From Bispira polyomma (lineage: Eukaryota), in NCBI GenBank assembly GCA_965649765.1, contig OZ287756.1, forward strand, positions 930,001 through 994,000: a stretch of 64,000 bases of DNA. Reading direction: 5' to 3'. Shown in pieces: positions 1,035-25,868 of the stretch. The notes beneath the pieces were generated by a model. That model did not search any database. It was given only the letters and a program-made list of their open reading frames with translations, and was not told where the DNA came from. A program made the translations under genes and the position numbers. Numbering within the stretch: the stretch's first letter is position 1; every line of letters begins with the position of its first letter.

Positions 1035-2019
1035 CTTATCAATATAGGCACATTAAAAATAATTGTTGGAAAATTGAAAGTATTTTCAGAAGAGAACTAT
1101 TTTTCCTTTGATTAGGTCTAAAGTGAAAATTTACTGACAACAACCACTTTTTAACCTTAACCCTAACATATTGTATCTCTTAAGACTTTGTTTCAGGATG
1201 AAACATCAATCCTAACCTTAATGCTTCAACAAAATAATAACAATACAACTTAATGTACTACATACTAGATAGTAAAATTTTTCCCTGTCAATCCACACAT
1301 CCTTATCATCTTTTTAGGTCACATACTAAACTTTGGTGTGTCTGCATTATTGATATGACCTCACAGTGGAACTGGCGGTGTGCGGAGTGTGCTGGAACAC
1401 ACCAGATGACAAGCAAACAATAGTTAACAAATTGCCGGCCATTTCAGCCCAGTCATAAACAAACCACTCCTTATCCAACCGAGTGAATCTCTCACTGAGA
1501 AATCAGAATAAAAAATAGTGAAAAAGAAACCAATGCGCTCGGGCTTTAGTTCTATTTTGAGGTTCAGTGATAGACACTAGGATTGGAGGTTATTTACTGG
1601 CTGGGCAGTGTTTGTGGGCGATTAGTTGATAAGTAACATTGTGTTTGGGGGTTGAAATAATTATATGAGAGTATGACATGGGTAGTAGGGTCCAAACACA
1701 CTAGGTGTGATCAGGCAGGGTGGGGGAGTGGCACTCAAACATCAGTAGGTGGTGGAGATTTATGTCATATAATCAGGAAAAGGCTGAGGTCTCACTGTGT
1801 TCATTACCTGAACTGAATTAAAAGTGTAGAATATATTCTATAAATATTAGAAGATGTTCATGAAACAAAAAGAAAATGTAAATTTAGAGAGTGAAAGAGA
1901 GTGCATCAAACTGTATTGTATTCAAATATTAGAAGTCCAGTGGTTTCTAAATATGTGCTGATTTAGCTACCTGCACAAATCTTAGAATTATAATTAGTTT
2001 AGAATGCAGTACCTTGAGC

Positions 2020-2133
2020 AACTGGTAAGCACTGCTTACCACCAGTCAGACTGGTTGTTGTGGCATGGCTTATACAATGTGTTGTAAGAGACGTTTAACC
2101 CCAATTAATCAATCAATCAATCAATCAATCAAT
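2020..2133 (+). mobile_element. 3' fragment of a SINE ending in a (CAAT)n tail
   Basis: tatacaatgtgttgtaagagacgtttaaccccaa followed by (aatc)n; a similar tail occurs at 57610-57648. Confidence 0.55.
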
Positions 2134-5100
2134 AGAAGTATAATTTACAATAGACACATGATGATACCAGTGAGAACCAACTTGTCCGACTAAAATAAAT
2201 CATGTCAAATCTCTGTTAATATTGGATAACTCATATGTCATAGAAAGATTCCATTCTAAACTACCAGATATCTAAAGTACACTGGCTCTGTTTTTACTTC
2301 CCGCTGTAAAAAGGAAGGTTGGGGCTAGCCAGCTTTTAATTGTCACCTAACATGAAACAAAAAGATATAAAGGAGGAGAACAGACTTGTCTGTAAAAAGA
2401 CCTGGGACTAAATACTAAGCAAATAAGTCATGACAAAGACAGTCTGATGTATAGAGAAAAACCCAAAAAAAAAACATCAGCTCTTTGAGGCTCTCAGAAA
2501 ACCAAGCAGCCAGTGTGGCGATAAGAATGAATTGAATCCAAAAAACAAGGCCAAAAAGGGTTTAATTCGATAGGGTGTCTGGAAGAAATGACAAATTGGG
2601 GGTGGGGGAACTAAGACCCTCAGTATAATAAATAAGGGTGGCAATGAACCAGTAAAAAACACCAAAACTATACTCGAGTCTTGCACACTTTTTCTTCTGT
2701 GCTAAATACAGGCATTTTGTTGCTTTAATTAGGTGACTTTTTTCCTAAATGTGTTTCAGTGTAAAGGATATGTTTCTATGGCAACAGAGTTTGATAGGAA
2801 ATCTCTTAAGAACAATGGAGATTTTCTTCCTATACTGGGCCTTAGTAGTAGGTACAGTGATTTGAACAGAATAAAACTTATTATGTAAGACAACGTTTTA
2901 AGACCTTTAATTAAAAATCTATTAACGTATTTTAAACTTTAAAAAATGGTGACAGATAAACCAGTTGCCAACTATTTAAAAAGATATTTTATGATTAATT
3001 TTATAATTATTTATCATATGGAATAGCATATTTCCATGTTGATACTTACAATATTGATCTTTTTACATATAAAATTGAAAATATTATGGTATCGATAAGT
3101 GGTCCCAAACTCCAAAACCAATATATCTATTTAAAGTCAGCTAGTTCTGAACAAGTTCATACTTCAAGATAAGTTTCTAAATGCAGAGTCAAGAAGTTTT
3201 AACTTATCACAGAAGTACAGATTTTCCACAGCATAAATAAAGAACTCAAAAGGGAAGTTGTTACCTAGTATGATATGCATATTTTGTCGCTAAGGAGTTA
3301 CAATTTTTTACATTGCAATCTGTTTACAAAACTTGCCTGACTGCCCTAGTGTCTCTTAATTTGAACTACCCGTCAATAAGGTCACATGGATACATTGATT
3401 AGAGTCAATATGTTCTGATTATTCTCTACAGTTATCTACCTGTACACAAACGACCTCAGGTAAAACTGTCAAAGTAGGTCACGAACTACAAAAATATAGT
3501 AGTTTCCATGTAAACATATTTTTTGAGGAGAAGAAAAAATATATTTTTTTTTTCTATGATTAGTACTAAATTAGAAATTTACTCCACTGACTACCACTAT
3601 TTCTTGTGTCAGTAACAAATTATCCAATCTTCTCTTTGTTAATCAAAAGGAAAGTGCCTCAATGACAAAATTGTCACATGTGTGGTGTGAAAATACAGAG
3701 AACATCTTCATTTCTGGATTATGTTAATATTAACTTTAACGTAAAACAGTGGTCTAGTTAGAATCTTCTGGAGCATTAATAAAAATAGTTTGGTATTTAA
3801 TGTAAATGTATGTATTATTAGCTGTAACATAACAAAAACAAAAGTTAAATTGATGTATTCTATGTATTGTTAACTGTAACATAACAGAAACAAAAGTTAA
3901 ATTGATGTATTCTATGTATTAAAACAGTGTATTTTTCTTTCTTTTCGTTTTTTTTTTCTTTTGTTTTTTGTATTACTATGTTACTGAGGATAAATTAAAA
4001 AGAAAAAACCTGATCCCCAAGATTTCTCTGACCCAATGCACTGATAGACTGTTTGTGCTGTTACACTCATGACATCTACAAATGACAGGGTCTTTTACAA
4101 CTAACCTCTCTCATGTGTTATTACTACTTTAATATTTGAGTCACTAATATTTCTAGAGTGATAAATCACCCAACTAACCAGTAATTTGTTCCAATTGACC
4201 TTATTTGATCTTCACAACATTTTGGCCATAGAAATATACATGTACTTTACTGTATTAAGCTGCATAAACAAGGTGGCCTGGTGATCAAAAGTTCCCTTGT
4301 TTGACTCCCTGTCATTCTTATAGTGGTTGCTTGGTAAAAATATCTTTGGGCAAGATCTGATCACCCTGTTAACTACACGTAACTATTAATTTATCTCTTA
4401 AAATTTTGTCACAGAGAGAAAAAAAAGCTTTTGAGGATTAAACATCAATCCTAATACTAATGCTTCAAGAATAAAATGCTGAAATTAATTCTTTATATAC
4501 TATCGTAGTAAAATATTTCCCAGTCAATCCACAAATCCTTCCCATCGGTTTAGCTCACATACTAAGCTCCAGTGTGTGCATTAAACTGTCAGTGTTCGGA
4601 GTGTGTTGGAACAGACCAGATGACAGGCCCAACAATAACTAACAAACTGCTGACCATTTTAGCCATGCCATAAACAATTCACTACTTACCTAAGTGAGTG
4701 ACTCTCACATGGAAATCAGAATGAAAATATAGAGACAAAACATGCAAAAGAAACCAATGCCTTGTGGGTGGATTGAGTCCTATTTTGGGGTTTAGTGATA
4801 AACATCAGCTGGGGTGATTTAGTGGGGGAGGGTTGTGTGTGAGGGGGAGAGGAGGGGCTAATAATACATTTGGGGTGTATAGAAGACTGTAAATATTATA
4901 TAAGATTATAACATTTATGAGAAAACCAAAACACACTATTTGTGGTCATGCAGGGTGGAGGAGTGGTACTCAAACACTGGTAGGTGGTGAAGATTTAGGT
5001 CATATCATCATAAAAGGGCTGATCTCTCACTGTGTTCATTACCTGAAGTAAAATAAAAGTGTAAGATAGGTTCTATGAACATAATATTATGTTGCCTTTA

Positions 5101-5234
5101 ACAGAAAGAAAAGATGTCATCAAAGTGTCTCAAATTATAATGACCACAAATACCCATTGATACAACATCTTTGAATGTATGTCCTTATCTTATAGTACCA
5201 GACTTTGTTTACATATTGGAATTTGTGTTGAGGG

Positions 5235-5248
5235 GTTACCATGGTAAC
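5235..5248. promoter_or_regulatory. RFX X-box palindrome (related boxes near 2772 and 6033)
   Basis: GTTACCATGGTAAC is a perfect X-box; GTTTCTATGGCAAC is retained in both duplicated blocks. Confidence 0.45.
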
Positions 5249-6701
5249 AACTGCTATTTACTCTGTATTACTGTACGACCTCCGACTTCAATAAGCTCCA
5301 GGCGGGAGGAGGTTCTAGGTTAAAACACTGACATGGTAAGCATGTATTTGACGAAAATATATAATTTCATTGGTTTCAATAAAAGTATGTGTCCATTTTA
5401 CATCAATTCTATTCCATACATGGTGAAAACCGGTAATACAACAAACTTGCCTTGAAAGTAAATCATAAAAACCTCCTATTGTATTAGATACCATATATAT
5501 CACAAACAGATTCCATTCTAAACTACCAGATATCTAAAGTACACTGATACTGTATTTACCAGCTTTTGATCGTCACCTAATGTTAAACAAAATTATGTCA
5601 TAGAGGAGAACAGACTGAGAATAAATGCTATGCAAAAATGTCATGACACAAAAACAGTCTGTTGTACATAAAAACCAGAATCAGGTATTCGAGGTCCTAA
5701 CAAAATGAACAGCCATTATGGTGATGAGAATAAATTGAATTTGACTCAATACCTCTACAGTTTACCTCTACCCCCTAACCCAAACAGTGAGGGTTCAACT
5801 CAACACTGTGTCTGGAAGAAATGGGAAAAATTGGAAGGGGACAAACCGATCTTCTCAACTCAACAGATATGTTGTTGTTCAAAACATAAGGTTGGCAAAG
5901 AACCAGTAAAAACAGCACTTGGTCTGGAGATACTACACTAGACCTACACACGTTCTTTTCTAAGCTAATTACAGTCACTTTTTTGCTTTAATTAGGTGAC
6001 TTTTTGCTAGATCTGTTTCAGTGTAAGGGATATGTTTCTATGGCAACATACTTTGATTTAGAATTTTTATACAGAATAATGGCGATTTCCTGCCCCTAGT
6101 TGACCTTGTTCTTAGGTACAGTGACCTGAACAGGATAACACATTGGCATTTAGATGTTGTTTACAATGACATTCTACTGAGAAATCTATCATTATATTTC
6201 AAATTAAATGTTTTAAATAAGATCTTTCATAATTAATTTGATGAAAATTAATAAAATATGATAGCATATTTCATAATAATACGTTTTATATACCATATGT
6301 AGCACAATTCGCACATCTTTCCTATATTTTTACCTCACATACTTAACTCATGTGTAGGGTCTGCATTATTGATATGACTTTACGGTGGAACTGACTGTGT
6401 GCTCGAAAAAACCTGATGACAGTTCAACAATGACTAACAAACTACCAGCCATTTCAGCCTCGCCATAAACAAACCACTTCCCACTCCATAAACCCACCAG
6501 AAAGACTTCAGCAACTGGAATTCAGACTAAAAATTAGGAATTTGGACAAAGCATGTCAAAATAAATGTCCCTGGTTGGAGGGCTGTGTGTGTGAGGGATG
6601 GGGAGGGGCAGGAGTGATAAATAAATTTGTGTATTGTGTATTGTAGATATTATATGGGAGTAGGACACGGATGGGAGAGTCCAAACACTCTGGGTGTGGT
6701 C

Positions 6702-8330
6702 AGGCAGGGTGGGGGTCGGGAGAGGCACTAAAGCACTACTAGATGGAGGTGATTTATGTCCTGTAATCATTAACACTTTTTTCGTCAACTGAACTAAATT
6801 GTAGAAGTATCAACTATAACATCTGAACATGTTATCAGAAAAAGTTTGTGTTTGGATATTTAAAGCTATTCAGGAAACTGAAGGGGCTTCTTATTATTAA
6901 ACAATCTGATCATGTACATTTGGGAAAGAGAGTCGAAATAATAAAAGTTTAGAGGTTTCAATCCGGTTCTCCATATTCGTACTACCTGTACAAAGCTATC
7001 TTCCCAAGGACTGGTAAATGGGTAAACAGTTCTTGTAAAGATTTAGCATCTGGTTACTTCATGTGAACAAATATGGAATAAAAATATAGTGTAAAGTAAA
7101 AAAAATAAACCAGCAAGCGTTGCAATTAAAAAAACAGTGGAAGCTACATTCAGAAAACTTTGTGTAATATCAGGCTTTCAAATAATGACGTATATATGTA
7201 TTAAAAATTGCTTATTGCCTGACATAGCTGTGTATTTCTTATGCTTAGTATAATCTGGGATCTTGTCAATAAATTTACATATTGTGTTGGCAATAAAGTA
7301 TTTCGAGTAAATATGATTTGTTTGCCAGTGTATCACCGATACCCATTGAGATGGTTCCTTTCAGTGAAGGTCCTTATCTTATGTTGGCAGTCTTTTGGGA
7401 GATTTGTGTTGAGAGCTTGTGACAACGGGTGTTCACTGTGTGTTACTGTACAATATCCATCTCCATTGCATTCCAGACAGGAGGAGAGTTATACGTCACA
7501 CAATACACTTCCTATTCCAGAACAAAAGCTACATCTCAACTAGGACAGTTTAATGAGTAACATTCAGGACTAATTAGAACTGATCACGAGCGGCTCTTCT
7601 GTTTCCACAAAGTTCAATTGTATCCGGCAAAATGTTTCTACCACGAAAAACAGTCAGGGTTTTAGTTAATGAGGAGTTTGCATGTGGAATGGCTGTAAGT
7701 TGTTGACAGTGTGATGGGTGGAGAAAAAAATTCCTTCTCATAAATTAAGAGATATAAAATATATATACACTCACATATACAGTCATTCATACATATATAC
7801 ATCCAGCCATACATGGTGATGAGTGGAAGGAGAATTCCTTCTCATAAATAAAGAGATATAATAAATATCTAGACAGCCTTATATACAATCAGACATATAA
7901 TCTAGCCCCACACGGTGATGAGTGGGGGAAGTGTTAGTCATAAATAAAGACATATAAAATAAATATATAGACAGCCATATATATAACCAGACATATAATC
8001 ATAAAATGTGATGATTTAGGGAGAGTCGTTTGTCATATATCTACAGATATAGAGTAAGTGTAAAGACAACCATACAATCAGCCATCTACATCTAGCCACA
8101 CAGGGTGATAAGTTATAGCTGAAGGGATTGCTGTAATAAAAACAATGGACAGAAACAAAGTAGGGCGGTATAATGGTATCTATAAGAACAAAGAAACTTA
8201 TACATATACAAAGATCTAGAGTCAGTACTGCAGTAAACTGGGTGATACAATGATACATCAAACTAAATAGACAGTATCATGTACAATCACCCATACAATA
8301 ACTTATACCATTGGTAACCTTTTAACATTG
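6702..8330 (+). repeat. Host segment duplicated on both sides of the Ngaro element (left copy)
   Basis: Roughly 97% identical by eye to 14349-15278; ends exactly at the element terminus (taacattg|cagtcg). Confidence 0.95.
7710..8110. repeat. Degenerate ~100-bp minisatellite, 3-4 copies
   Basis: ggtgatgagtgg...ctcataaataaagagatata recurs at about 7711, 7815 and 7915. Confidence 0.7.
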
Positions 8331-8518
8331 CAGTCGCTTTCAAAAGTGGGTATATGACCTTCAAGGTCAGAGGTGATGACCTTGCAGGTTAGGAATTATG
8401 ATTGTAACCTTGAGTTGATAAATTTGATGCAGTTTGGGATAAATTTTATTATCATCAATAAAATTTCTATATACAGCTCTATACAAAAATTTTAAGATTA
8501 AAATTTTTAGAAAATGCC
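8331..8518 (-). repeat. Split direct repeat B2 (3' terminus of the element)
   Basis: 184/188 identical to 9338-9525; contains AATAAA on the - strand and the palindrome TGACCTTcAAGGTCA. Confidence 0.95.
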
Positions 8519-9078: not shown

Positions 9079-9133
9079 TATAAAGACAAGTTTTCGACCA
9101 TACTAAGTTAAGGGTGGTGGGTAGGGTGAAATA

Positions 9134-9337
9134 TTTTACTTGTTGTCTCGTTGCTTTCAAATTTTATAATGCTAACATAATAGGAAAGGCGGGAAAACGC
9201 CCAGGAATCAAAGTATTTAATTGGTCTTAATCTGCCATTTGATTGGCTTTAGGTTGGTATACAAATAATCGAACAGTAAACTTCTACTTTTTAGCACCTG
9301 AAATGCCATGCGAACTTAAGGTCTGCAGTGACGTTCA
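9134..9337 (-). promoter_or_regulatory. Repeat A2: promoter-like (2x CCAAT, E2F-like TTTTCCCGCC, TATAAAA)
   Basis: On the - strand: CCAAT near 9246 and 9224, TTTTCCCGCC near 9197-9188, TATAAAA at 9168-9162, about 30 nt before the end of A1/A2 identity. Confidence 0.6.
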
Positions 9338-9525
9338 CAGTCGCTTTCAAAAGTGGGTATATGACCTTCAAGGTCAGAGGTGATGACCTTGCAGGTTAGG
9401 AATTATGATTGTGACCTTGAGTTGATAAATTTGATGCAGTTTGGGATAAATTTTATTGTCATCAATAAAATTTCTATATACAGCTCTATACAAAAATTTT
9501 AAGGTTAAAATTTTTGGAAAATGCC
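9338..9525 (-). repeat. Split direct repeat B1
   Basis: Direct repeat of 8331-8518, starting 55 nt after the YR stop codon. Confidence 0.95.
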
Positions 9526-9579
9526 AAAGCCAATAGCAGCAAAGGTGGTAGGGATAATTGAAGCTGGATGAGAGGTAGC

Positions 9580-10494
9580 TTAAAGGTATGACCAAACTGC
9601 ATTAGATTTCCAACAACCATGTTTTTGTATGTGTTGTAACTTAATGTTAGAATTAGAAGCTAGTGAAGCACCTGATCTTCTAAAACAATGGAATGAGTGA
9701 CCTTCATGTGGTATTTGACTCTGTGTAAGTGTGTGTTTAAGGGCAAGCCTTAGTTTTGAATCTGTGAGGCATTTGTCTTGTTGTGTTGGATCAGCCAACA
9801 GTGGGGCTGTATCTTTCAGTGGGTATTTTTGAAACAACTGTGTAACTGTCTTAACTGGGTACAGCCAGTGGTTGCTTAATTCTGGGAGTTGTATAATATC
9901 AGGTGTATTTCTGCTTTGGTTGGTTTTCGACCATTTCAATATCAGGTGTATTCCTGGTGGGTGCAAAAATTATATCTGACCTTGTTATGTGTCGAGTTTG
10001 GTCAAAATCTACACCAGAGGTAGTTGTTAGGTTTGAAATTCTTAAGAAACCAAAGAATGCAAAAAGAAATGCTGTCCTGAACAGCTCAGGAAAGTGTAAT
10101 GAGTTACAATTTTTTGAAATCTGTTGTAATTGATGTAAATCAAAGACACCTTTGACCTTTGGTGTAAAGTTTGAGGTGAGTTGTAGTGACTTCAAATATA
10201 ATGATAACCTTTGGTCATATAGGCCAGTTTGGTGCATGTTGAAAACTTTACAGTTGTGTCTGAGGGCTGAAAGGTAGTTATTTATCACTTGATAAGAAAT
10301 TCCAGTTTGTGTCAGGAATTCAAGGAAGGCTATTATGCTGGTATAGCCAAAAGTGTCCTTAAAATCATAATATATGGTGAAACTCAAGAATAATCTAAAT
10401 TGATTGTCATATAATCTTGTCGTACGTGGTCTAAGGCTTTGTCGTATCCTTTCTCCTGCTGTCTGTACTAGACGTCTAGCTATAGCTGGTGTAT
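9580..10494 (-). pseudogene. Tyrosine recombinase of the Ngaro element (one frameshift near 9955)
   Basis: Catalytic residues R (GFLRISNL), K (WSKTNQ), HxxR (HCFRRSGA), W (GCWKS) and Y (WSYL), split over ORFs 9899-10387 and 9580-9966; the frame stays open to about 10500. Confidence 0.92.
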
Positions 10495-10505
10495 CTGAAA
10501 ATATA

Positions 10506-12267
10506 TTATATTTCTGTGTCCATTATAAACATGTCAATTAGTATGTCTTTAATGTCCAAGTTACCTAATGGTAAGTTTTCCTTATGCTGTCCATAATGTC
10601 CTGATTCGTACCACCTAGATAGTGTGTCGGCTATTGTGTTATCCTTTCCAGGGATATGCGCTATCATTAGGCCAATATTTTGGTGAGCACACAACAGCCA
10701 CATATTCCTTAAACATAGTCCTAAAAATTCGTCTCGTGTCCTGGATGAGCTAACAACAGCCACCACTGCCATATTGTCTGATAAAACTTTTATCTTTTTG
10801 TTTTTCCATTCGGGTGACCACAGTTTTAGTGCTATTAGTACACTTACCATTTCAAAATGTACTATAGTTAGGGTTTGAGTCAAAAATATTGGTAGTGCTG
10901 TCTTAAATGCTTTGTTTCCAGATACTCCACCAATACCTGTTAAGCAAGCGTCTACCTGAAAGAGTACTTCATGGGTTTTGTTTTTGAAGCTGTATTTAGT
11001 CGTTCCATTAAATTTTAGCAGGAATTTAATGAACCACTGTAAGTCCTTAAAATTACTATCCAAATGAATTTTTGCACTACTTTTTGAATTCCTTAACAAA
11101 GATAGCATGCGACACACATCTGTGTACATAGAGGAGTTTACCCAAGAGGGACTGATACTTGTATTTGGGTACTTTGGTTAGATTTTCAAAAGTGATACAT
11201 TCTTTATATATTGAAACCAATTTATCTTGATCTATACTCAATGTTTCTTCATTGACATCAATGGTTATACCCATGCAGGTAACCTGTTTACTGGGTGGCA
11301 CAAGTTTCTTTTTGTTAATGGGTAAACATAGGTCATTTAGAAGTTGTTGTAACGTTATGTATGCTAAATCTGCTGTGTTTTCATTTTCTATGATAAGAAA
11401 ATCGTCTATGTAGTTAAAGACTGTGAAACCTTTTTGTTTCATAATGAATCTTATTGTGTCTGATGCCATCATAAAAATGGTAGTGCCATGAGTTAATCCA
11501 AAAGTTAGGCTTAAATCTATGTAGTGTCTGTCTTTCCAAAAATAACCTAATTTTAAACAATCAAATGGATCCATTCTTAAATTTCTAAACGCATGCGCAA
11601 CGTCCACCTTTGCTATGGTAGCTGATTCACCTAAATTTTTAATATGAGTAGTGATCATGTCGATGGTGGGTAATCTTAAGTCAAATCTGACACCGTCATA
11701 TTCAGTCTTTACTGTACAATCATTCACTGAATGCCCCTTTGGGTATGACAGGTCTAAAATTAGTCTCCTTTGGTCAGTGTCCTTAGGTCTGGTCAGTAGA
11801 GGTGAACAATGTAGGTCTTCATGTAAATGTTCATTATTTGCTTCTATAATAGTACCTTTTGTAATTTCTGTCAAAAAATATCTATCAATTTCTTTAGGAA
11901 AAATTTTTGCTGAATAACGATTTTTGAGATATTTTTGTTTTATTCTATCTCTCTCGTATATTGAAATAGGGAAACCAAATTCCAAATATTGTAGTAGGAT
12001 TTGATTTGGGTAATCTCTTAAATGTTTCTTCCAATTGTCTATATTTAGATTACATTCAATTGGGATTCGTGATACTTTGTAGTTTGGCTGTTTTGTTCGC
12101 TTTATCGTTTCAGCTATGTTGACTAATTTTTCATAAGAATTTATGTTCACACTCTGTCTGGTTGGTCCTATGAATTGGAAGTCTTTAAAGCTACAAGGGA
12201 CAAAACCATAAGCCCTTTCCTTATTGTCCTTTTTATAATAGTCTTCATTTTCTAACACTGTTTCCAA
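10506..12267 (-). pseudogene. Reverse transcriptase + RNase H of the Ngaro element (frameshift near 11110)
   Basis: RLILDLSYP, AKVDVAHAFR, YIDLSLTFG and YIDDF RT motifs; VDACLTGIGG, HFEM, SDNMAVV and HIPGKDNTIADTLSR RNase H motifs. Confidence 0.95.
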
Positions 12268-12365
12268 GTATGTCAGTCCTTTGAAGTCTGGCTCCTTATT
12301 GGAGTCCTGTATGACTATGTTGTCCTGTTTTGTTATAATGTCCTCGTTTTTGTGTGATTTTTGTT

Positions 12366-12887
12366 CTAAATCATAATGTTGTGATAGAAGTTTTTATGTG
12401 TTATTTCTTTCTTTTGTGTATGTTTGTGTGTGTGTTCATTTGTCTGCTGTTGGCATGTTTTATCAATGATATTTAAGTAATAATCAGTATTACTCATTTT
12501 TGTTCTTGTGTGTGTGTTTCTATTTGTGTTTGTAAACTGTTGTCTTTTGAAACTGTTATTCTTTATAACAGTGGTCTTTGTAATAATCTCAGTTCTAATG
12601 GTGGTAACATATGTGACTGGCCACATGTGTTGAAGTTTCTTATTTGTCATGTTAAAATTCTGTTGGTCGTCCTTATATGTTAAGTTATAAACTCCTGAAA
12701 AACATGCATCACTTTGATATACAATATAATACAATGGTTCCATGACACTGTGTGGCTGTCCACTGGTCATGTGGATATCAATGTTAGAAAACTTTTTACT
12801 ATCTTTAAGTTCATTGTCAATCTCAGAATTATCTGAGTTAAAAGTAGCTTCATTAACACTGCTACTTTCATTGTCATTACATTTCAT
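12366..12887 (-). pseudogene. N/T/K-rich low-complexity ORF, probably the N-terminal extension of pol
   Basis: Lies between gag and RT on the element strand; no recognisable domain. Confidence 0.45.
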
Positions 12888-13049
12888 TGTTATTATATTA
12901 TCAAATGAATTAAAATGGTTCTCATTGTTCGTCCTTAACTTTTTGTGAATTTCATTGTCATATACTGTGTTAATTTTTGAACTCTCCCTTTAACTATTAT
13001 ACACTGACGTATCGACCCTGGTGGTGCTGGCTGATGTTAGCTGGATGTC

Positions 13050-14155
13050 CTATTGAGTAGTCGTTGTTCCTGGCTTTCCATGTAGCTTATAACATTTACT
13101 TTCAAGGTGAGGATTGAACCTCTTGTTGACCTTAAAACAATTCGCACAAGCGTGTTTGAAGGTTGCTGTCGCCCCCTCATGGTCTCCTTTGTGTTGGCAT
13201 TGGCCTTTCTGGAAATGCTTACAGGGGAGTTCTAGTTTCTTTGTAGACGAAGTGACGTCAGACGTGGAGGCGCTCGATAGTAGCGCTTGAGAGTAGGATA
13301 GACGATTCATTGTCCATCTGTTATCTTCAGTCCAAGTTAGGCGACCCTCTTCAATATCATGCATATTTGAAGCGTATGCACCGCGTGCTACTTGCCAAGA
13401 AATATTACCAGCTTCTTTTAAGGTATCGGCGAGGTGCTTTAGCATAGCTCTGGAAGTTACTGGGTTTTACACTTCTAAAGCATTCTGAAGTTGTCCGGCT
13501 GCGAATTGTGCCACTGTTAATTCGTCGTAAGATACACGTTTCTTACTGACTCCAGCGAGACATCCCTCATTTGGCCACCTTAGCGATGGATCAGTGGTGC
13601 AAATTTCAGAGACGTTAAACCGGCCTGATTTACGTTTTGCAGAAAGCAGCTTACCTTGGAAAGTTTCGTCGTTCGCCCAAACTCCATACTGTGCTAACCT
13701 TTGGCTGACTATTGTTTTAAAACTTCTGTGCTGGGGATGATGCTGTCTTGTAGAGCACGTTGTGGAAAGGTGTCTCCTATTGGTTGTTGTACTGTTGTAA
13801 GTTCACTCCTGGGGTTCGGTTCGACTGCGACTGGTTGTTTGTGTACATTAGATGTGTCATTTTTAAGGCTAGAGACGTCCTCTTGCAATTTTGAAACTGT
13901 TTTTACTAGCATTTCCATCATGGATTGTTGCCTTTCATAGCCTTCTCGATAGAAATCTCTTTCACTTTGTGTATCTGCCCTCTCGAGAGAGTCTACTACG
14001 GGGGAAGTATCTTCATCAACCATACTCATAGTACTGTGTAAGACGTTTTCTCCAGTATTCAGCTTACAACTGATTCCGACGGGGCGTTCGTGTACAATAG
14101 CACACCTTGAGCACAAAGCCGTTTCGGTCATGTTTCTTTTCTTTCCACGACCCAT
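13050..14155 (-). pseudogene. gag-like ORF1 of the Ngaro element
   Basis: N-terminal CxxC-x3-H-x7-C knuckle, coiled coil, YDELTVAQFAAG segment and C-terminal CKHFQKGQC...HACANC zinc fingers; frameshift near 13710 and stop near 13468. Confidence 0.85.
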
Positions 14156-14348
14156 AACTCAAAATTAATAGTACATATAATGTAAAATATCAATCATAAA
14201 ATCTTATTCTATAACAGAAAAATTAAAAACCTTATGTAAAACACACTAAAATCACTTGAGTTTGTAAAATATTTCATAAAATCCAATATGGCTTCCTTTT
14301 CTTCAAATTTTTTACTTGTTGTCTCGTTGCTTTCAAATTTTATAATAA

Positions 14349-15278
14349 AGGCAGGGTGGGGGTCGGGAGAGGCACTAAAGCACTACTAGATGGAGGTGAT
14401 TTATGTCCTGCAATCATTAACACTTTTTTCGTCAACTGTACTAAATTGTAGAAGTATCAACTATAACATCTGAACATGTTATCAGAAAAAGTTTGTGTTT
14501 GGATATTTAAAGCTATTCAGGAAACTGAAGGGGCTTATTATTAAACAATCTGATCATGTACATTTGGGAAAGAGAGTCGAAATAATAAAAGTTTAGAGGT
14601 TTCAATCGGGTTCTCCATATTTGTACTACCTGTACAAAGCTATCTTCCCGAGGACTGGTAAATGGGTAAACAGTTCTTGTAAATATTTAGCATCTGGTTA
14701 CTTCATGTGAACAAATATGGAATAAAAATATAGTGTAAAGTAAAAAAAATAAACCAGCAAGCTTTGCAATTAAAAAAAACAGTGGAAGCTACATTCAGCA
14801 AACTTGGTGTAATATCAGGCTTTCAAATAATGACGTATATATGTATTAAAAATTGCTTATTGCCTGACATAGCTGTGTATTTCTTATGTTTAGTACAATC
14901 TGGGATCTTGTCAATAAATATACATATTGTGTTGGCAATGAAGTATTTCGAGTAAATACGATTTGTTTGCCAGTGTGCCACCGATACCCATTGAGATGGC
15001 TCCTTTCAGTGAAGGTCCTTATCTTATGTTGGCAGTCTTTTGGGGGATTTGGGTGATAAGTTATAGCTGAAGGGATTGCTGTAATAAAAACAATGGACAG
15101 AAACAAAGTAGGGCGGTATAATGGTATCTATAAGAACAGAGAAACTTAAACATATACAAAGATCTAGAGTCAGTACTGCAGTAAACTGGGTAATACAATG
15201 ATACATCAAACTAAATAGACAGTATCATGTACAATCACCCATACAATAACTTATACCATTGGTAACCTTTTAACATTG
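14349..15278 (+). repeat. Right copy of the flanking host duplication, with a ~700-bp internal deletion and the empty insertion site
   Basis: Matches 6702-7406 joined to 8103-8330, then continues into unique DNA (taacattg|ttttcg). Confidence 0.95.
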
Positions 15279-18906: not shown

Positions 18907-19162
18907 ACAAGGAATGATAGTAATGTAAATATTTATATATACCTCTTTGGTGTATTAGATCTTGTTCATTAGATAAGTCATATTATTTTAGATTGGACAT
19001 AAATACATTCAGCCCCATGTGTCTTAGTGTACAGATATGTCCCATTCCCAAAATGTGTACGTATATATTAAGGTGCAGTTGGTATCAACATTCTAGAAAT
19101 CTTTTCTGACAACCTAACCACCCTCTTCTTGTGGTTAAAGATGATGTAAGCATGTTCTGCAG

Positions 19163-19716
19163 TTTTGTTTTATATTTCAGATTGTATTGTTGCTATGTGG
19201 TCACTTTTATATCAAGTATGATTGTATTATGTTTTATATTGCAGATTTCATTGTTACTATGTGGTGTTGGTAACCTTTATAATAAGTATGATTGTATTTT
19301 GTTTTATATTGCAGATTTCATTGTTATTATGTGATGTTAGTAACCTTTATAATAAGTATGGATGTATTTGTTTTATATTGCAGATTTCATTGTTACTATG
19401 TGGTGTTAGCGACCTTTATATCAAGTATGATGTATTTTGTTTTGTATTGCAGATTTCATTGTTACTATGTGGTGTTAGTGACCTTTTAATCAAGTATGAT
19501 TATATTTTGTTTTGTATTGCAGATTTCATTGTTACTATGTGGTGTTGGTGACCTTTAGAATAAGTATGATTGTATTTTGTTTTATATTGCAGATTTCATT
19601 GTTACTATGTGGTGTTGGTAACCTTTATAACAAGTATGATTGTATTCTGTTTTATATTGCAGATTTCATTGTTACTATGTGGTGAACTTTAGAATAAGTA
19701 TGATTGTATTTTGTTT
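19163..19716 (+). repeat. 70-bp minisatellite, ~8 copies, each with a splice-acceptor-like tract
   Basis: Unit ttgtattttgttttatattgcag ATTTCATTGTTACTATGTGGTGTTG gtaacctttataataagtatga. Confidence 0.95.
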
Positions 19717-19824
19717 CAACATATTTATCTTGTACCTAAGTTATGCTTATATTCTATCAACATTGTAACCTAGAAGGTCACATTTACAGAATGTACACAT
19801 AAAGTATGTTTCTTGTATTTCTAG

Positions 19825-22800
19825 GAACGTTAGATGCGACAGAGGAGACTATATATGTTTCTTTAATGGGCTCAGATCAGGAGCATTGTGGCTCTATACA
19901 GAGCCCCTGTCGGTCTATTCTCTATGCTGTAAGTTCCTCTTCCTCAGACAGTTTACATATAGCTCTAATCTACCAACAGGACCAGACTTACTACATTCCC
20001 TGTACCAGTCTAAATCTCACTCTACACCGACACTTAAAGATCTCTGGGAACCAGGCTAAGATTGGCTGTCACTTCCCGCAGACAAGTATGCAAAATCCCA
20101 GGAAAGACAGCAGCATGATAACAATAAGGGGTTCTAAGGATATAAGGGGTCATATCACCCTAGAGAAGCTGGTGTTTGTCAAAGCTGACATCAGACTTAT
20201 TGACTGGCACGTTTCCATTACAAACTGTGAGTTTGAGAGCACACGACTGAGGTTGATCAATGAAGAGGGAGGGTTCGCAAACAGCAGAGAGCTTGCAATT
20301 AGAAACACCCACTGGTCGGGCTATACCTACTGTCAGGGAGATAACTGTGTGCCTTCCGGGGAGATCTCAATTAGGGGCCACTACAAAGACGTCAACATCA
20401 CAGGCAATGTCTTCTCTCACACTAACCTCACAGCTGAATTGCTGTCTAACTGCAAGGTGAGACTCACGGATAATCGTTTAACTAATGACCAATTACACCG
20501 ACCTGTGGAAAGCAGCATTTTTGTCAAGCTGGACATTAGCGCCAACGATAGCAAAATCTTTGTGACTAATTCGGTGTTTGAACACCAGTATCACTGGAAT
20601 CCCGTGGAGAGTGTGATGAACATCTATGAGGCCGCCCTCTTACTGAGATACAGCAGCCCTCCTCACATCATGGTCCCCAATAACATATCTGTCCTGATAG
20701 ACAACTCCACCTTCTACAACAATGAACGAGGGCTGACTTTTCAAGGGCAAATTGAACACATCACAATAAGAAGTTGCATCTTTCATTTCAATATGGCTAT
20801 GCATGCCGGAGCTGGGATTCTCTTACTTACCATGAAGCACGCTCTGATCCAGAACTCCACCTTTAAACACAATGCTGCAGGCCAGTTTAGGAAGGACAAT
20901 GTCAGATCTCCAGGGGATTACTTCAAAGTAGACAATGATGAGGCCTACGTGTACTCTGGCTGTTGTAAGGGGTCGATTTCACTGATAGGCAAAGGGGGAG
21001 CTATCAGGATTCAGAAGGGAGATGTCACATTAGTCGGCTGTGATTTCATTAACAACACGGCCACTATCCTGGGAGGGAGTATCTTTGTAGACAGAGATTG
21101 TAAGCTGATTATTAATGAGACTCAATTTATCAACACAGACTCTATCAGTGCTGCGGCCCAGCAGGGGGACATGTTATACTCTAACGGAGAGGTGAGGATC
21201 AACGGGGCCAAACTTTATGTCCAGTCAGCAGCCAATCACATCTCATTACTACAACACAGCGGCGAGCACTGGTCGGTAGGAGTTTATGACATCACCATTG
21301 ATTGTCCTATTGGCTATAGACTAAGGATAATGAATACTTCAGCCTACCAGGTGGTAGCACACAAGGGACTCAAGAGGTCCTACATGTTAGACCAGCTGGC
21401 CTACTTCTGTGAGTCTTGTCCCAGGTACAAGTACAGCTTAGAGAGAGGCTACTTCAAGTACCAGATGGACTCTGATGACAAGGGCTACTTTACCCTGATG
21501 ATTAATGGCGATAACCCCAACTCTGAATTCCAAGGGACGTATGTGTACAAAGATATAATATGCAAGAAATGCCCTTATGGTGGCAACTGTGACAATGACC
21601 AGCTCAAGTCTCTGCCAAACTTCTGGGGTTACGAGTATCAGACAGAGGTCAAATTCCAGCTCTGTCCTAAAGGTTACTGCTGTAGTTCAAAGTTCTGCCC
21701 TTCCTTTAATAACTGCGCTAAGTACAGGACAGGCCGTCTCTGTGCTGAATGTCAACACGGCTACTCCGAAGCTCTGTTCTCCTCAAAGTGTATCCCTAAC
21801 AGCCTCTGTGGGCCCGTCTGGATCTGGGTCTTCTCTTTTGGAATGGGCTTTCTCTATGCCATGTTGTTGTTCTTTCAAAAGGACATCAGAGACTTTATCT
21901 TTGCTATGCCTGAGCTGAGTTGCAAAGGGGAGGTTGATGAGACAGAGAAAGCAGATAAAGAGCTGGACGAAGAGCAACACTGTCTGCCAACAGACTCTCA
22001 TCAATTCAGCACCAACAATAGAAAGTTTGGCTTTACTGAGGCGTGTGATCAAAGTGACACACTGACAAAAGACGACAACTGGCAGAGGAATGGCCTGTCA
22101 GGAAAACAAGGGATTGAAGTCCTGGATACCTACGGTCGTATATTAGTGTCTGGAGAGAATGAGGGGGAGGAGGTGCAATGCTGTCAAGGGGATACAGAAG
22201 ATGGGGAGGAACAACCAACCTCTCAAGCCGCCACCGATTTTGGGGCCATTATGTTGATCACGATTCTGTACTACTTCCAAGATGCTCAACTTTTACATGT
22301 TAAGACAGCCTTTGCTGTGGAAGAAAACCCCAACTGGTCTCTTATTAAGGCCATTCTGCTCGGCCTGTTTAAGTTTAGGATAGAAATTGCCCATTTTGTG
22401 GACTCGGTGTGCTTAGTGGAGGGTATGAGTGCCAGCGTGAAGCTACTCTCCAGGACTTTGCTGGTGCCCTATGTACTGTTGTTATTTGGTCTTCTATATT
22501 TTGCACACATGGTGTGTAGCAAGCTATGTCTTGGTAACTCATTGAAGTCTAAGGAAGAAGTCAGTGAGCCAGAGACCTTCTTGTCTCGATTGGCCATGGG
22601 CTTTATGTTGGCCCTGTTGTTTACCTACCAAATGCTGGCCACCACGGCCTTTAAACTGTTGAACTGTGTTCCTGTCGGAGAGGACAGTGTGCTCTTCATT
22701 GATGCCACGGTGACCTGCTATGAACCCTGGCAGTATGGAGTCCTTGCCTACGCCATGAGTTGTATTGTACTCTTCTCGTGTGTTCTGATGCTGGGGCCGG

Positions 22801-23435
22801 GGCTTTTACAGGAAGGTCGCATATCACTGCCCACGTTCTTTACGGCCTGCATCTTCCCCTTTCCTTTTGTGATCTCCTGGATCCTAATTAGACTATGCAA
22901 GAGAAGTGATCTGTGTCTGCCCAAGAAGGACTCCTACCCCACAGGTCCTGGCCAGGTGGTCATTAAGGTGTTGCAGGGGCCTTTTAAGGAAATCAGTAGC
23001 CCATTGACGGGGCCCATTTGCTGGGCCGGGGTGTTGATCTTCAGGAGACTCCTGCTGGTGTTGCTTTACACTTTTATCAATGTCTCACTCCTCAGACTTC
23101 TGGCTATGCTCCTCACTTGTTTTGTCATCCTGCTCAACCAGGTGCATGTCAAACCGTACAGAGACTCTCGGGCGAACCAGGCAGGTAGTGCCTCTGTGGC
23201 CGCTCTGATGTTCGTCGGAGGCATCAACCTAGTAAGGGCGGGCTTTGAGGCTGCAGAGTACACGCCTCATGGACCCTACCAAATGTTGATCATCATTATG
23301 CAAGAGACAGAGAATGTACTGATGTTGTGGATACCTCTGGTCTTTATGGTGGTCATGGGAACCATCCTGGCCATTAAAATCGGTTGTCGTATTGCGATCT
23401 CTCTCAGAAAGTGTTGTTCTGGACAAAGCACATAA
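19825..23435 (+). CDS. Large coding exon of an uncharacterised membrane protein: pectin-lyase-like right-handed beta-helix ectodomain, Cys-rich region, ~8 TM helices
   Basis: 1209-codon ORF in GC-richer DNA. N-terminal YVS..GSD...CG....PC motif, FxxN and GG(A/S)I repeats, CxxCPxGxxC and CPxGYCC...RTGRLCxxC modules, hydrophobic helices in the C-terminal ~530 aa. Phase-1 acceptor ttgtatttctag at 19824, so the signal-peptide exon is probably upstream. Confidence 0.9.
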
Positions 23436-25566: not shown

Positions 25567-25868
25567 TGGGGAGAGGGGGGGTAACCAAGTTTATGTACAA
25601 GGAGGGAACAAATTGGGAGAGGGGGTAACCAAGTTTATGTACAAGGAGGGAGCAACGTGGGGAGGGGGGGGGGGGGGGTAACCAAGTTTATGTACAAGGT
25701 GGGAGCAAAGTGGGGAGGGGGGTAACCAAGTTTATGTACAAGGTGGGAACAAAGTGGGGAGGGGGGTAACCGAGTTTATGTACAAGGTGGGAACAAAGTG
25801 GGGAGGGGGGTAACCGAGTTTATGTACAAGGTGGGAACAAAGTGGGGAGGGGGGGGGGTAATCAAGTT
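25567..25868 (+). repeat. G-rich ~42-bp minisatellite, ~7 copies
   Basis: Unit ggggagggggg(n)taaccaagtttatgtacaaggtgggaacaaagt. Confidence 0.95.

Follow-up and report, generated by a model that had tools for sequence, protein, structure and literature searches.

The window analysed here, a 64,000-nucleotide (nt) stretch of contig OZ287756.1 of Bispira polyomma, carries on its minus strand, from 14346 down to 8331, a decayed Ngaro-type tyrosine recombinase (YR) retrotransposon, and the sequences of this element and of its relatives in the same genome argue strongly that active relatives make their recombinase as a fusion of the N-terminal half of Gag with YR, by means of a conserved splice from gag into the YR frame. 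A phase-1 donor is conserved in gag and a phase-1 acceptor lies behind the RNase H stop, and a Gag-YR fusion is therefore likely in active relatives. An earlier sequence-only reading of the window had proposed such a splice, and the proposal is supported by the conservation of the two sites, by the lack of a start codon common to the window's family and by one genomic copy from which the predicted intron has been removed exactly.

Splice sites and the missing start codon in the window copy

Reading the minus strand directly, we find the donor CCAAG/GTAAGC at 13655/13654 (the slash marks the exon border) and the acceptor TATTTTCAG/ATAC at 10495/10494; both sites, the 3160-nt distance between them and their common phase are as the sequence-only reading had them. 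The donor splits the Gly codon of the gag sequence F-Q-G-K behind its first base, and the exon at the acceptor opens with two bases of the first YR codon, so that both are phase 1. A GT donor and a YAG acceptor (Y is a pyrimidine) that are in phase and conserved among relatives are what a spliceosomal GT-AG intron would have. The stop of the reverse transcriptase/RNase H (RT/RH) frame, TAA at 10508-10506, comes 11 nt ahead of the exon border at the AG, and a stop at 10525-10523, 9 codons upstream of the AG, closes the YR frame; both had been claimed. The first ATG of the window's YR frame had been placed well inside the domain; it lies 86 codons past the AG (10237-10235) and is private to this copy, since the codon is Ile in 10 of 11 close copies and the eleventh has a deletion there. 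Near-intact close copies have no in-frame ATG, and YR frames free of Met run for 332, 308 and 321 codons in the relatives L001, L007 and L014, respectively.

Conservation of the gag donor

Our genomic sample comprised 99 ten-kilobase loci (given L numbers) chosen to span the matches of the genome searches. Alignment of 57 natural gag frames, from which 2 that end before the site were dropped, left 55, and 48 of these have the codon GGT at the donor column. Five further frames, all of one family, have TAG/GTAAGA at the donor in one alignment and are shifted in a second alignment, and L059 keeps the GT with a changed exon base. When the frames are grouped into families at 80% identity (26 families; median identity 31%, minimum 19%), Gly is present at the donor column in 25 of 26 and is encoded by GGT in 25 of 25, the twenty-sixth family being the one with TAG/GTAAGA. 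As background, GGT accounts for 154 of 442 other Gly codons, the context R-GGT-A is found at 30 of 442, and three other conserved gag Gly columns have mixed codons (GGT in 5/16, 9/20 and 11/21). The residue that follows the donor Gly varies (K, T, M or N) and its codon always begins with A; the residue that precedes it also varies (Q, P, K, S or A) and its codon ends in A or G. Because these flanking residues change while the bases stay, the constraint at the donor acts at the nucleotide level. In most gag frames the site is the best or tied-best match to the donor consensus.

Conservation of the acceptor and its relation to YR

The acceptor was examined in 37 copies, picked by eye, whose RH frame reaches its natural end. 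The first YAG past the RH stop is in phase 1 in 31 of them (18 of 21 families), in phase 2 in three and in phase 0 in one; the same first-YAG rule applied as a control from arbitrary YR positions finds phase 1 in 38%. The spacer from RH stop to acceptor ranges from 6 to 36 nt, and a phase-1 YAG lies 23-24 codons ahead of a conserved T-x3-Y motif in 18 of 21 family representatives (one of the remaining three is without a YAG, and two escaped the motif pattern used). Since the distance to T-x3-Y is fixed despite the variable spacer, the acceptor is tied to the YR protein and not to the RH stop, and its position relative to YR is kept at identities down to 23%. The first Met of YR is 218-228 codons in, or absent, in eight copies. 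Conservation of both sites and of their phase in intact members, which the sequence-only reading had offered as a check, extends far beyond the window's family.

A genomic copy that lacks the predicted intron

Eight loci were taken from YR matches with unusually long open frames, and one of these, L104 (G000:C1:95304801-95311800), which belongs to a sister family of the window's, has a gag that runs straight into YR in one frame (...WTTDESIQ-D-TSLLAT...). Its alignment with the full-length copy L047 breaks off at the donor base and continues from the acceptor, the one ambiguity being the AG common to both sites; the missing interval is 3391-3411 nt long in the sister family. L104 shares 97-98% identity with L046 and L051 and extends from A1 to B, and its YR groups with that of L046 in a quick tree of this genome's YRs only. 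All other matches to the L104 junction, among the candidates scored, split at the junction point. L104 is likely, to judge from its sequence, a retrocopy of a spliced RNA in which both terminal repeats were kept.

Searches for a second spliced copy with a junction-spanning protein (150 of 3081 candidates scored) and with DNA (40 of 259 scored) returned L104 only, as did a scan with a degenerate junction motif at 0 and 1 mismatch. A second degenerate motif gave 0 matches and then 6, compared with 3 in the control; three of the six are inside the YR body and three have no gag or YR match in the part displayed. Among the best 150 of 4919 database candidates, drawn from libraries that are mostly unspliced gene calls, there was no fused Gag-YR protein. 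No contig bridging the L104 junction was present among the matches listed from three sequencing runs, which counts neither way. These runs behave as DNA, with even depth over intergenic sequence, and the matches listed from them include no joint at the window's donor and acceptor. Five loci considered as spliced copies (L108, L017, L101, L102 and L103) were rejected as truncations or deletions. In L017, L101 and L102 an internal deletion ends 2-4 nt ahead of the YR acceptor; the 5' breaks are unrelated, and in L101 and L102 the deletion leaves pol fused in frame to YR.

Points against the splice and alternative explanations

A number of observations weigh against the proposed splice. L004 has lost the donor GT, 2 of the 37 copies have no YAG within 57 nt of the RH stop, and the first YAG is off-phase in 4 of 37, these four having a phase-1 YAG at +19 or +23. 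Phase 1 is also the commonest class among all YAGs in YR frames (237 of 539). The families share ancestry, falling into 12 clusters at 60% gag identity and 7 at 60% YR identity, and the family counts therefore overstate independence. A single spliced copy was found, one of eight long-frame outliers, in a sister family and in the assembly only, and its 3' breakpoint is of a kind that the search method favours, as the selection picks 3' breaks near the YR start. In L101 and L102 the deletions stop just short of the acceptor, and their 5' breaks show no GT. The parents of L104 have 260-272 AG dinucleotides upstream, so the search bias leaves the exact match to the donor unexplained; a deletion at an AG microhomology would match the donor in roughly 1 of 90-270 cases, a chance that is small but not nil. 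Finally, all of the evidence for the splice is at the level of DNA.

The sites might be there by chance, with protein constraint on Q-G-K and codon bias giving AG/GT and a random deletion giving L104. AG across codons is commonest in phase 1 and deletions ending near the acceptor do occur, but the residues beside the donor vary while the bases are kept, the other conserved Gly columns use mixed codons, and the acceptor holds its place relative to YR among very distant copies. We give this explanation almost no weight.

It might also be that the acceptor is real but is mostly served by another donor, such as that of a 5' leader exon, or that YR re-initiates at an ATG of its own after the RH stop, the gag donor serving something else. 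Six of the 24 copies listed (L024, L052, L060, L062, L065 and L066) have an ATG in the YR frame a single codon past the AG, which counts toward this explanation and against the splice as the only route. As an ATG stands one codon past the acceptor in several families, the claim of the sequence-only reading that the recombinase has no start codon is correct for the window's family and fails as a statement about all relatives. There is in addition an acceptor-like sequence ahead of the gag ATG in L033, and 5' leader introns may therefore exist. However, neither the window's family nor several others have a usable ATG, donor and acceptor share their phase throughout, and L104 pairs exactly these two sites; we regard another donor or re-initiation as the main route as highly improbable. 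A pyrimidine tract with an AG shortly before the gag ATG is found on the reverse strand of L033 and at about 14222-14210 in the window.

A third explanation is the one closest to the published view. Poulter and Butler 2015, as quoted in the passage of PMC13003380 that we used, describe a YR start that overlaps RT/RH in the -1 frame and to which programmed frameshifts probably give access. A Pol-YR fusion made by programmed -1 frameshifting in a short RH/YR overlap, with the splice-like sites as by-products, would agree with the 25 of 37 copies in which YR is in the -1 frame relative to RH, 24 of which overlap RH. On the other hand, YR is in frame 0 in 7 of 37 and in +1 in 5 of 37, the window's family being +1, and 9 of 37 have no overlap; because the RH-to-YR frame varies in this way, frameshifting is excluded as the general route. 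An in-frame slippery heptamer lies within the overlap in just 3 of 37 copies, whereas clear slippery heptamers are kept at the end of gag in another clade, and frameshifting leaves both the fixed gag GGT codon and L104 unexplained. We therefore consider it very unlikely as the explanation, but it may be a second route where YR is -1 to RH; the early ATG in 6 of 24 copies and the -1 frame in 25 of 37 mean that second routes may exist, and this too tells against splicing as the whole account.

The predicted Gag-YR protein

We return to the Gag-YR fusion that the splice would produce. The sequence-only reading had described the Gag N-terminus as a zinc knuckle plus a coiled coil. Retroviral knuckles have the spacing C-x2-C-x4-H-x4-C. 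The coiled coil is borne out (helix 68-103 in L001 numbering) and precedes the donor together with a Cys/His motif, but the latter is C-x2-C-x3-H-x7-C and so is not a retroviral knuckle; the C-terminal gag zinc fingers lie past the donor, within the stretch that splicing would remove. In a model of L001 Gag (mean predicted local distance difference test score, pLDDT, 61.5) the donor falls at residue 246 in a low-confidence linker, after a conserved helix pair at 215-240 and ahead of a confident helical core at 293-373; the fold has no match in the PDB at E <= 0.001. A model of the L104 frame (mean pLDDT 77) has a whole Cre-like recombinase after the junction (Cre match E 7e-8). These models suggest that the splice would swap the Gag core and zinc fingers for a whole recombinase.

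The retained half of Gag may, at a little under even chances, let the fusion join Gag assemblies through its coiled coil. It is less likely that its Cys/His domain helps choose targets, and somewhat less likely again that it mainly supplies a start codon. The idea of targeting to particles has to accommodate a splice that loses both the well-folded core of Gag and its C-terminal zinc fingers. Ngaro copies without ORF1 lose their target preference, according to the passage of PMC8547959 that we used, and this effect would fit an aiming role of the Gag half.

Proposed mechanism

We propose that Gag, Gag-Pol and Gag-YR would all be made from one transcript. Unspliced RNA would give Gag, and also Gag-Pol by stop read-through or by -1 frameshifting at the end of gag; a spliced subgenomic RNA would skip the Gag core and all of pol and join the gag donor to the YR acceptor, with the rate of splicing setting the amount of recombinase. 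Reverse transcription of the spliced RNA would yield a copy of the L104 type with both terminal repeats. It seems probable, with less confidence than we place in the splice itself, that a splice-made fusion of the Gag N-terminal half with the recombinase is a general and ancient Ngaro integrase route that takes the place of frameshifting, that the Gag half brings the recombinase to the particle or target, and that the spliced RNA is mobile. Were this true, it would explain why ORF1 seems to set the integration preference of Ngaro elements, as reported in the part of PMC8547959 covered here.

Two kinds of gag end were seen, in different clades. In the window (13055-13040) and in L041, L044, L045, L046, L052 and L055 gag ends in CAA TAG with pol following in frame; G is mostly the next base and GGACTG occurs a few bases on. 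We take this CAA TAG G end to be a candidate stop read-through signal. L060, L063, L065, L069, L071, L073, L076, L085 and L097 have A AAA AAC at the end of gag, followed by an inverted repeat of the type CCACTGC...GCAGTGG, and this heptamer with its hairpin-like sequence is a candidate -1 frameshift signal for Gag-Pol.

Relation to known systems

To our knowledge, translation of the third open reading frame (ORF) of YR retrotransposons has so far merely been guessed at, as a probable frameshift. If the proposed splice is real, the integrase is redefined as a Gag fusion and YR ORFs annotated from their first ATG are truncated; these elements would then have a retrovirus-like plan of Gag, recoded Gag-Pol and a spliced third product, and Gag would have a possible route by which to steer integration. 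A conserved splice has a precise junction that is testable in any RNA-seq set.

In retroviral env splicing pol is taken out within a single intron, and the last ORF is thereby read from the first start codon. The predicted splice works in the same manner but is not an env-type subgenomic RNA in the strict sense, a designation we rejected because the downstream exon is the recombinase: the last ORF here is the integrating enzyme, and about 245 Gag residues would be kept where env RNAs keep none or few. The spliced subgenomic RNA of Ty1/Copia elements codes for Gag alone. The arrangement proposed here resembles it in that a retrotransposon would set its protein ratios by splicing part of its RNA, and differs from it in that the spliced RNA would code for a Gag-recombinase fusion.

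The closest working analogue is the SD' RNA of murine leukemia virus (SDARE, P50), for which the passages of PMC10496198 consulted describe a donor within gag that gives rise to a subgenomic RNA, which is reverse transcribed and integrated and in which an N-terminal part of Gag is in frame with integrase sequence. According to the same passages P50, an accessory product, contains no more of a DDE integrase than the final 116 residues, whereas here production of the entire recombinase would require the splice. Ngaro-like YR retrotransposons (order DIRS), as portrayed in the parts of PMC8547959, PMC4157794, PMC9210276 and PMC3783388 at hand, share with the window element the layout A1-[gag, RT/RH, YR]-B1-A2-B2, the lack of a methyltransferase and a Cre-like YR; those parts speak of overlapping or frameshifted ORFs and leave splicing unmentioned, whereas a gag-to-YR splice is indicated here. 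A gag-to-YR splice was not found in the passages covered of the literature on splicing and frameshifting in YR elements (PMC7192593, PMC9341512, PMC3783388, PMC6681497, PMC3266345, PMC4157794, PMC4495291, PMC8547959, PMC9210276, PMC13003380 and bioRxiv 10.64898/2026.05.21.726589); an earlier mention in other sources, such as Repbase or the reviews of Goodwin and Poulter 2004 and Poulter and Butler 2015, is possible.

Layout, class and decay of the window element

Features of the element are collected in Table 1. All of its ORFs are on one strand, in the order A1 remnant, gag, pol, recombinase frame, B1, A2, B2.

Table 1. Positions of the retrotransposon features and predicted splice sites in the window.
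Feature	Position	Strand	Basis
A1 remnant, 42 nt, 5' split direct repeat	14305..14346	-	98% match to 9129-9170
gag (ORF1), broken	13050..14155	-	ATG 14155, natural stop TAG 13052-13050, premature stops
Exon 1, coding part (predicted), with Cys/His motif, coiled coil, low-complexity linker and conserved helix pair	13655..14155	-	alignment and model
Phase-1 splice donor CAAG/GTAAGC, exon ends at 13655 (predicted)	13649..13658	-	sequence and conservation
Predicted intron, 3160 nt: 3' half of gag and all of pol	10495..13654	-	donor/acceptor distance
pol (RT, RNase H), broken by several frameshifts	10506..13049	-	stop TAA 10508-10506
Phase-1 splice acceptor TATATTTTCAG (predicted)	10495..10505	-	sequence and conservation
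Tyrosine recombinase (YR) exon, end approximate	9510..10494	-	HxxR and Tyr motifs
Split direct repeat B1	9338..9525	-	98% to 8331-8518
Split direct repeat A2	9129..9337	-	matches 5' end of full copies
Split direct repeat B2 (3' terminus of the element)	8331..8518	-	repeat comparison

The element fits the Ngaro-like group by its repeat layout, its missing methyltransferase and the HxxR and Tyr motifs of its YR. The split direct repeats follow the A1-[ORFs]-B1-A2-B2 arrangement given for Ngaro-like elements in the passage of PMC8547959 used, with A1 truncated (full copies have about 209 nt of A at the 5' end), and gag, RT/RNase H and YR follow in the order of that group. Absence of a methyltransferase is a Ngaro criterion in the part of PMC4157794 seen; here the RH stop lies so close to the YR exon that no such domain follows RNase H, and PF05869 has 0 matches genome-wide. 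The YR has HxxR, the catalytic Tyr and a Cre-like fold, the fold being taken from the sister-family copy (E 7e-8 to Cre). Overlap of YR with RH in the -1 frame, a typical but non-defining Ngaro trait, is absent from the window's family, in which YR is +1. Membership in the DIRS1-like or PAT-like groups was rejected, as neither a methyltransferase domain nor, for DIRS1-like elements, inverted terminal repeats were found.

The window's pol sits in frame behind the gag TAG and has Pfam matches to RVT_1 (E 5.6e-10) and RVT_3 (RNase H-like; E 0.0016). Despite 97% identity to L001 the copy is dead, with frameshifts in gag, pol and YR; YR has a 1-nt indel near 9962 and, further on, a stop codon at 9582-9580. 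In L001, L004 and L014 gag is open for 444-446 codons. A gag frameshift upstream of the donor, as the sequence-only reading had it, is caused by the loss of 19 nt after 13711 relative to L001; a further 207 nt are missing, in frame, near 13799-13795.

The host genome (1.04 Gb) is rich in such elements, with more than 13,000 first-look candidates for one YR query. A single B repeat at the 3' end (A1-ORFs-B, without A2-B2) is seen in many copies, namely L001, L003, L004, L005, L009-L012, L014 and L104. L009, L010, L011 and L012, which are decayed and almost identical to one another, lie near the starts of four contigs, and this placement suggests that they spread along with a subtelomeric duplication. 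The window element is flanked on either side by a copy of the same host sequence, about 930 nt long and 97-99% alike (14349-15278 compared with 8103-8330 plus 6702-7406); about 700 nt (7407-8102) interrupt the second copy, and the 5' end of the element is cut at the border of the duplication.

Other features of the window

Elsewhere in the window, an open frame of 1210 codons on the plus strand at 19803-23435 has a region matching PF13229 (right-handed beta-helix; E 3.3e-7) and is hydrophobic in its C-terminal part. Tandem arrays are present at 19130-19716 (70-nt unit) and 25576-25858 (44-nt unit), and old repeats about 3.2 kb apart lie at 1200-7000.

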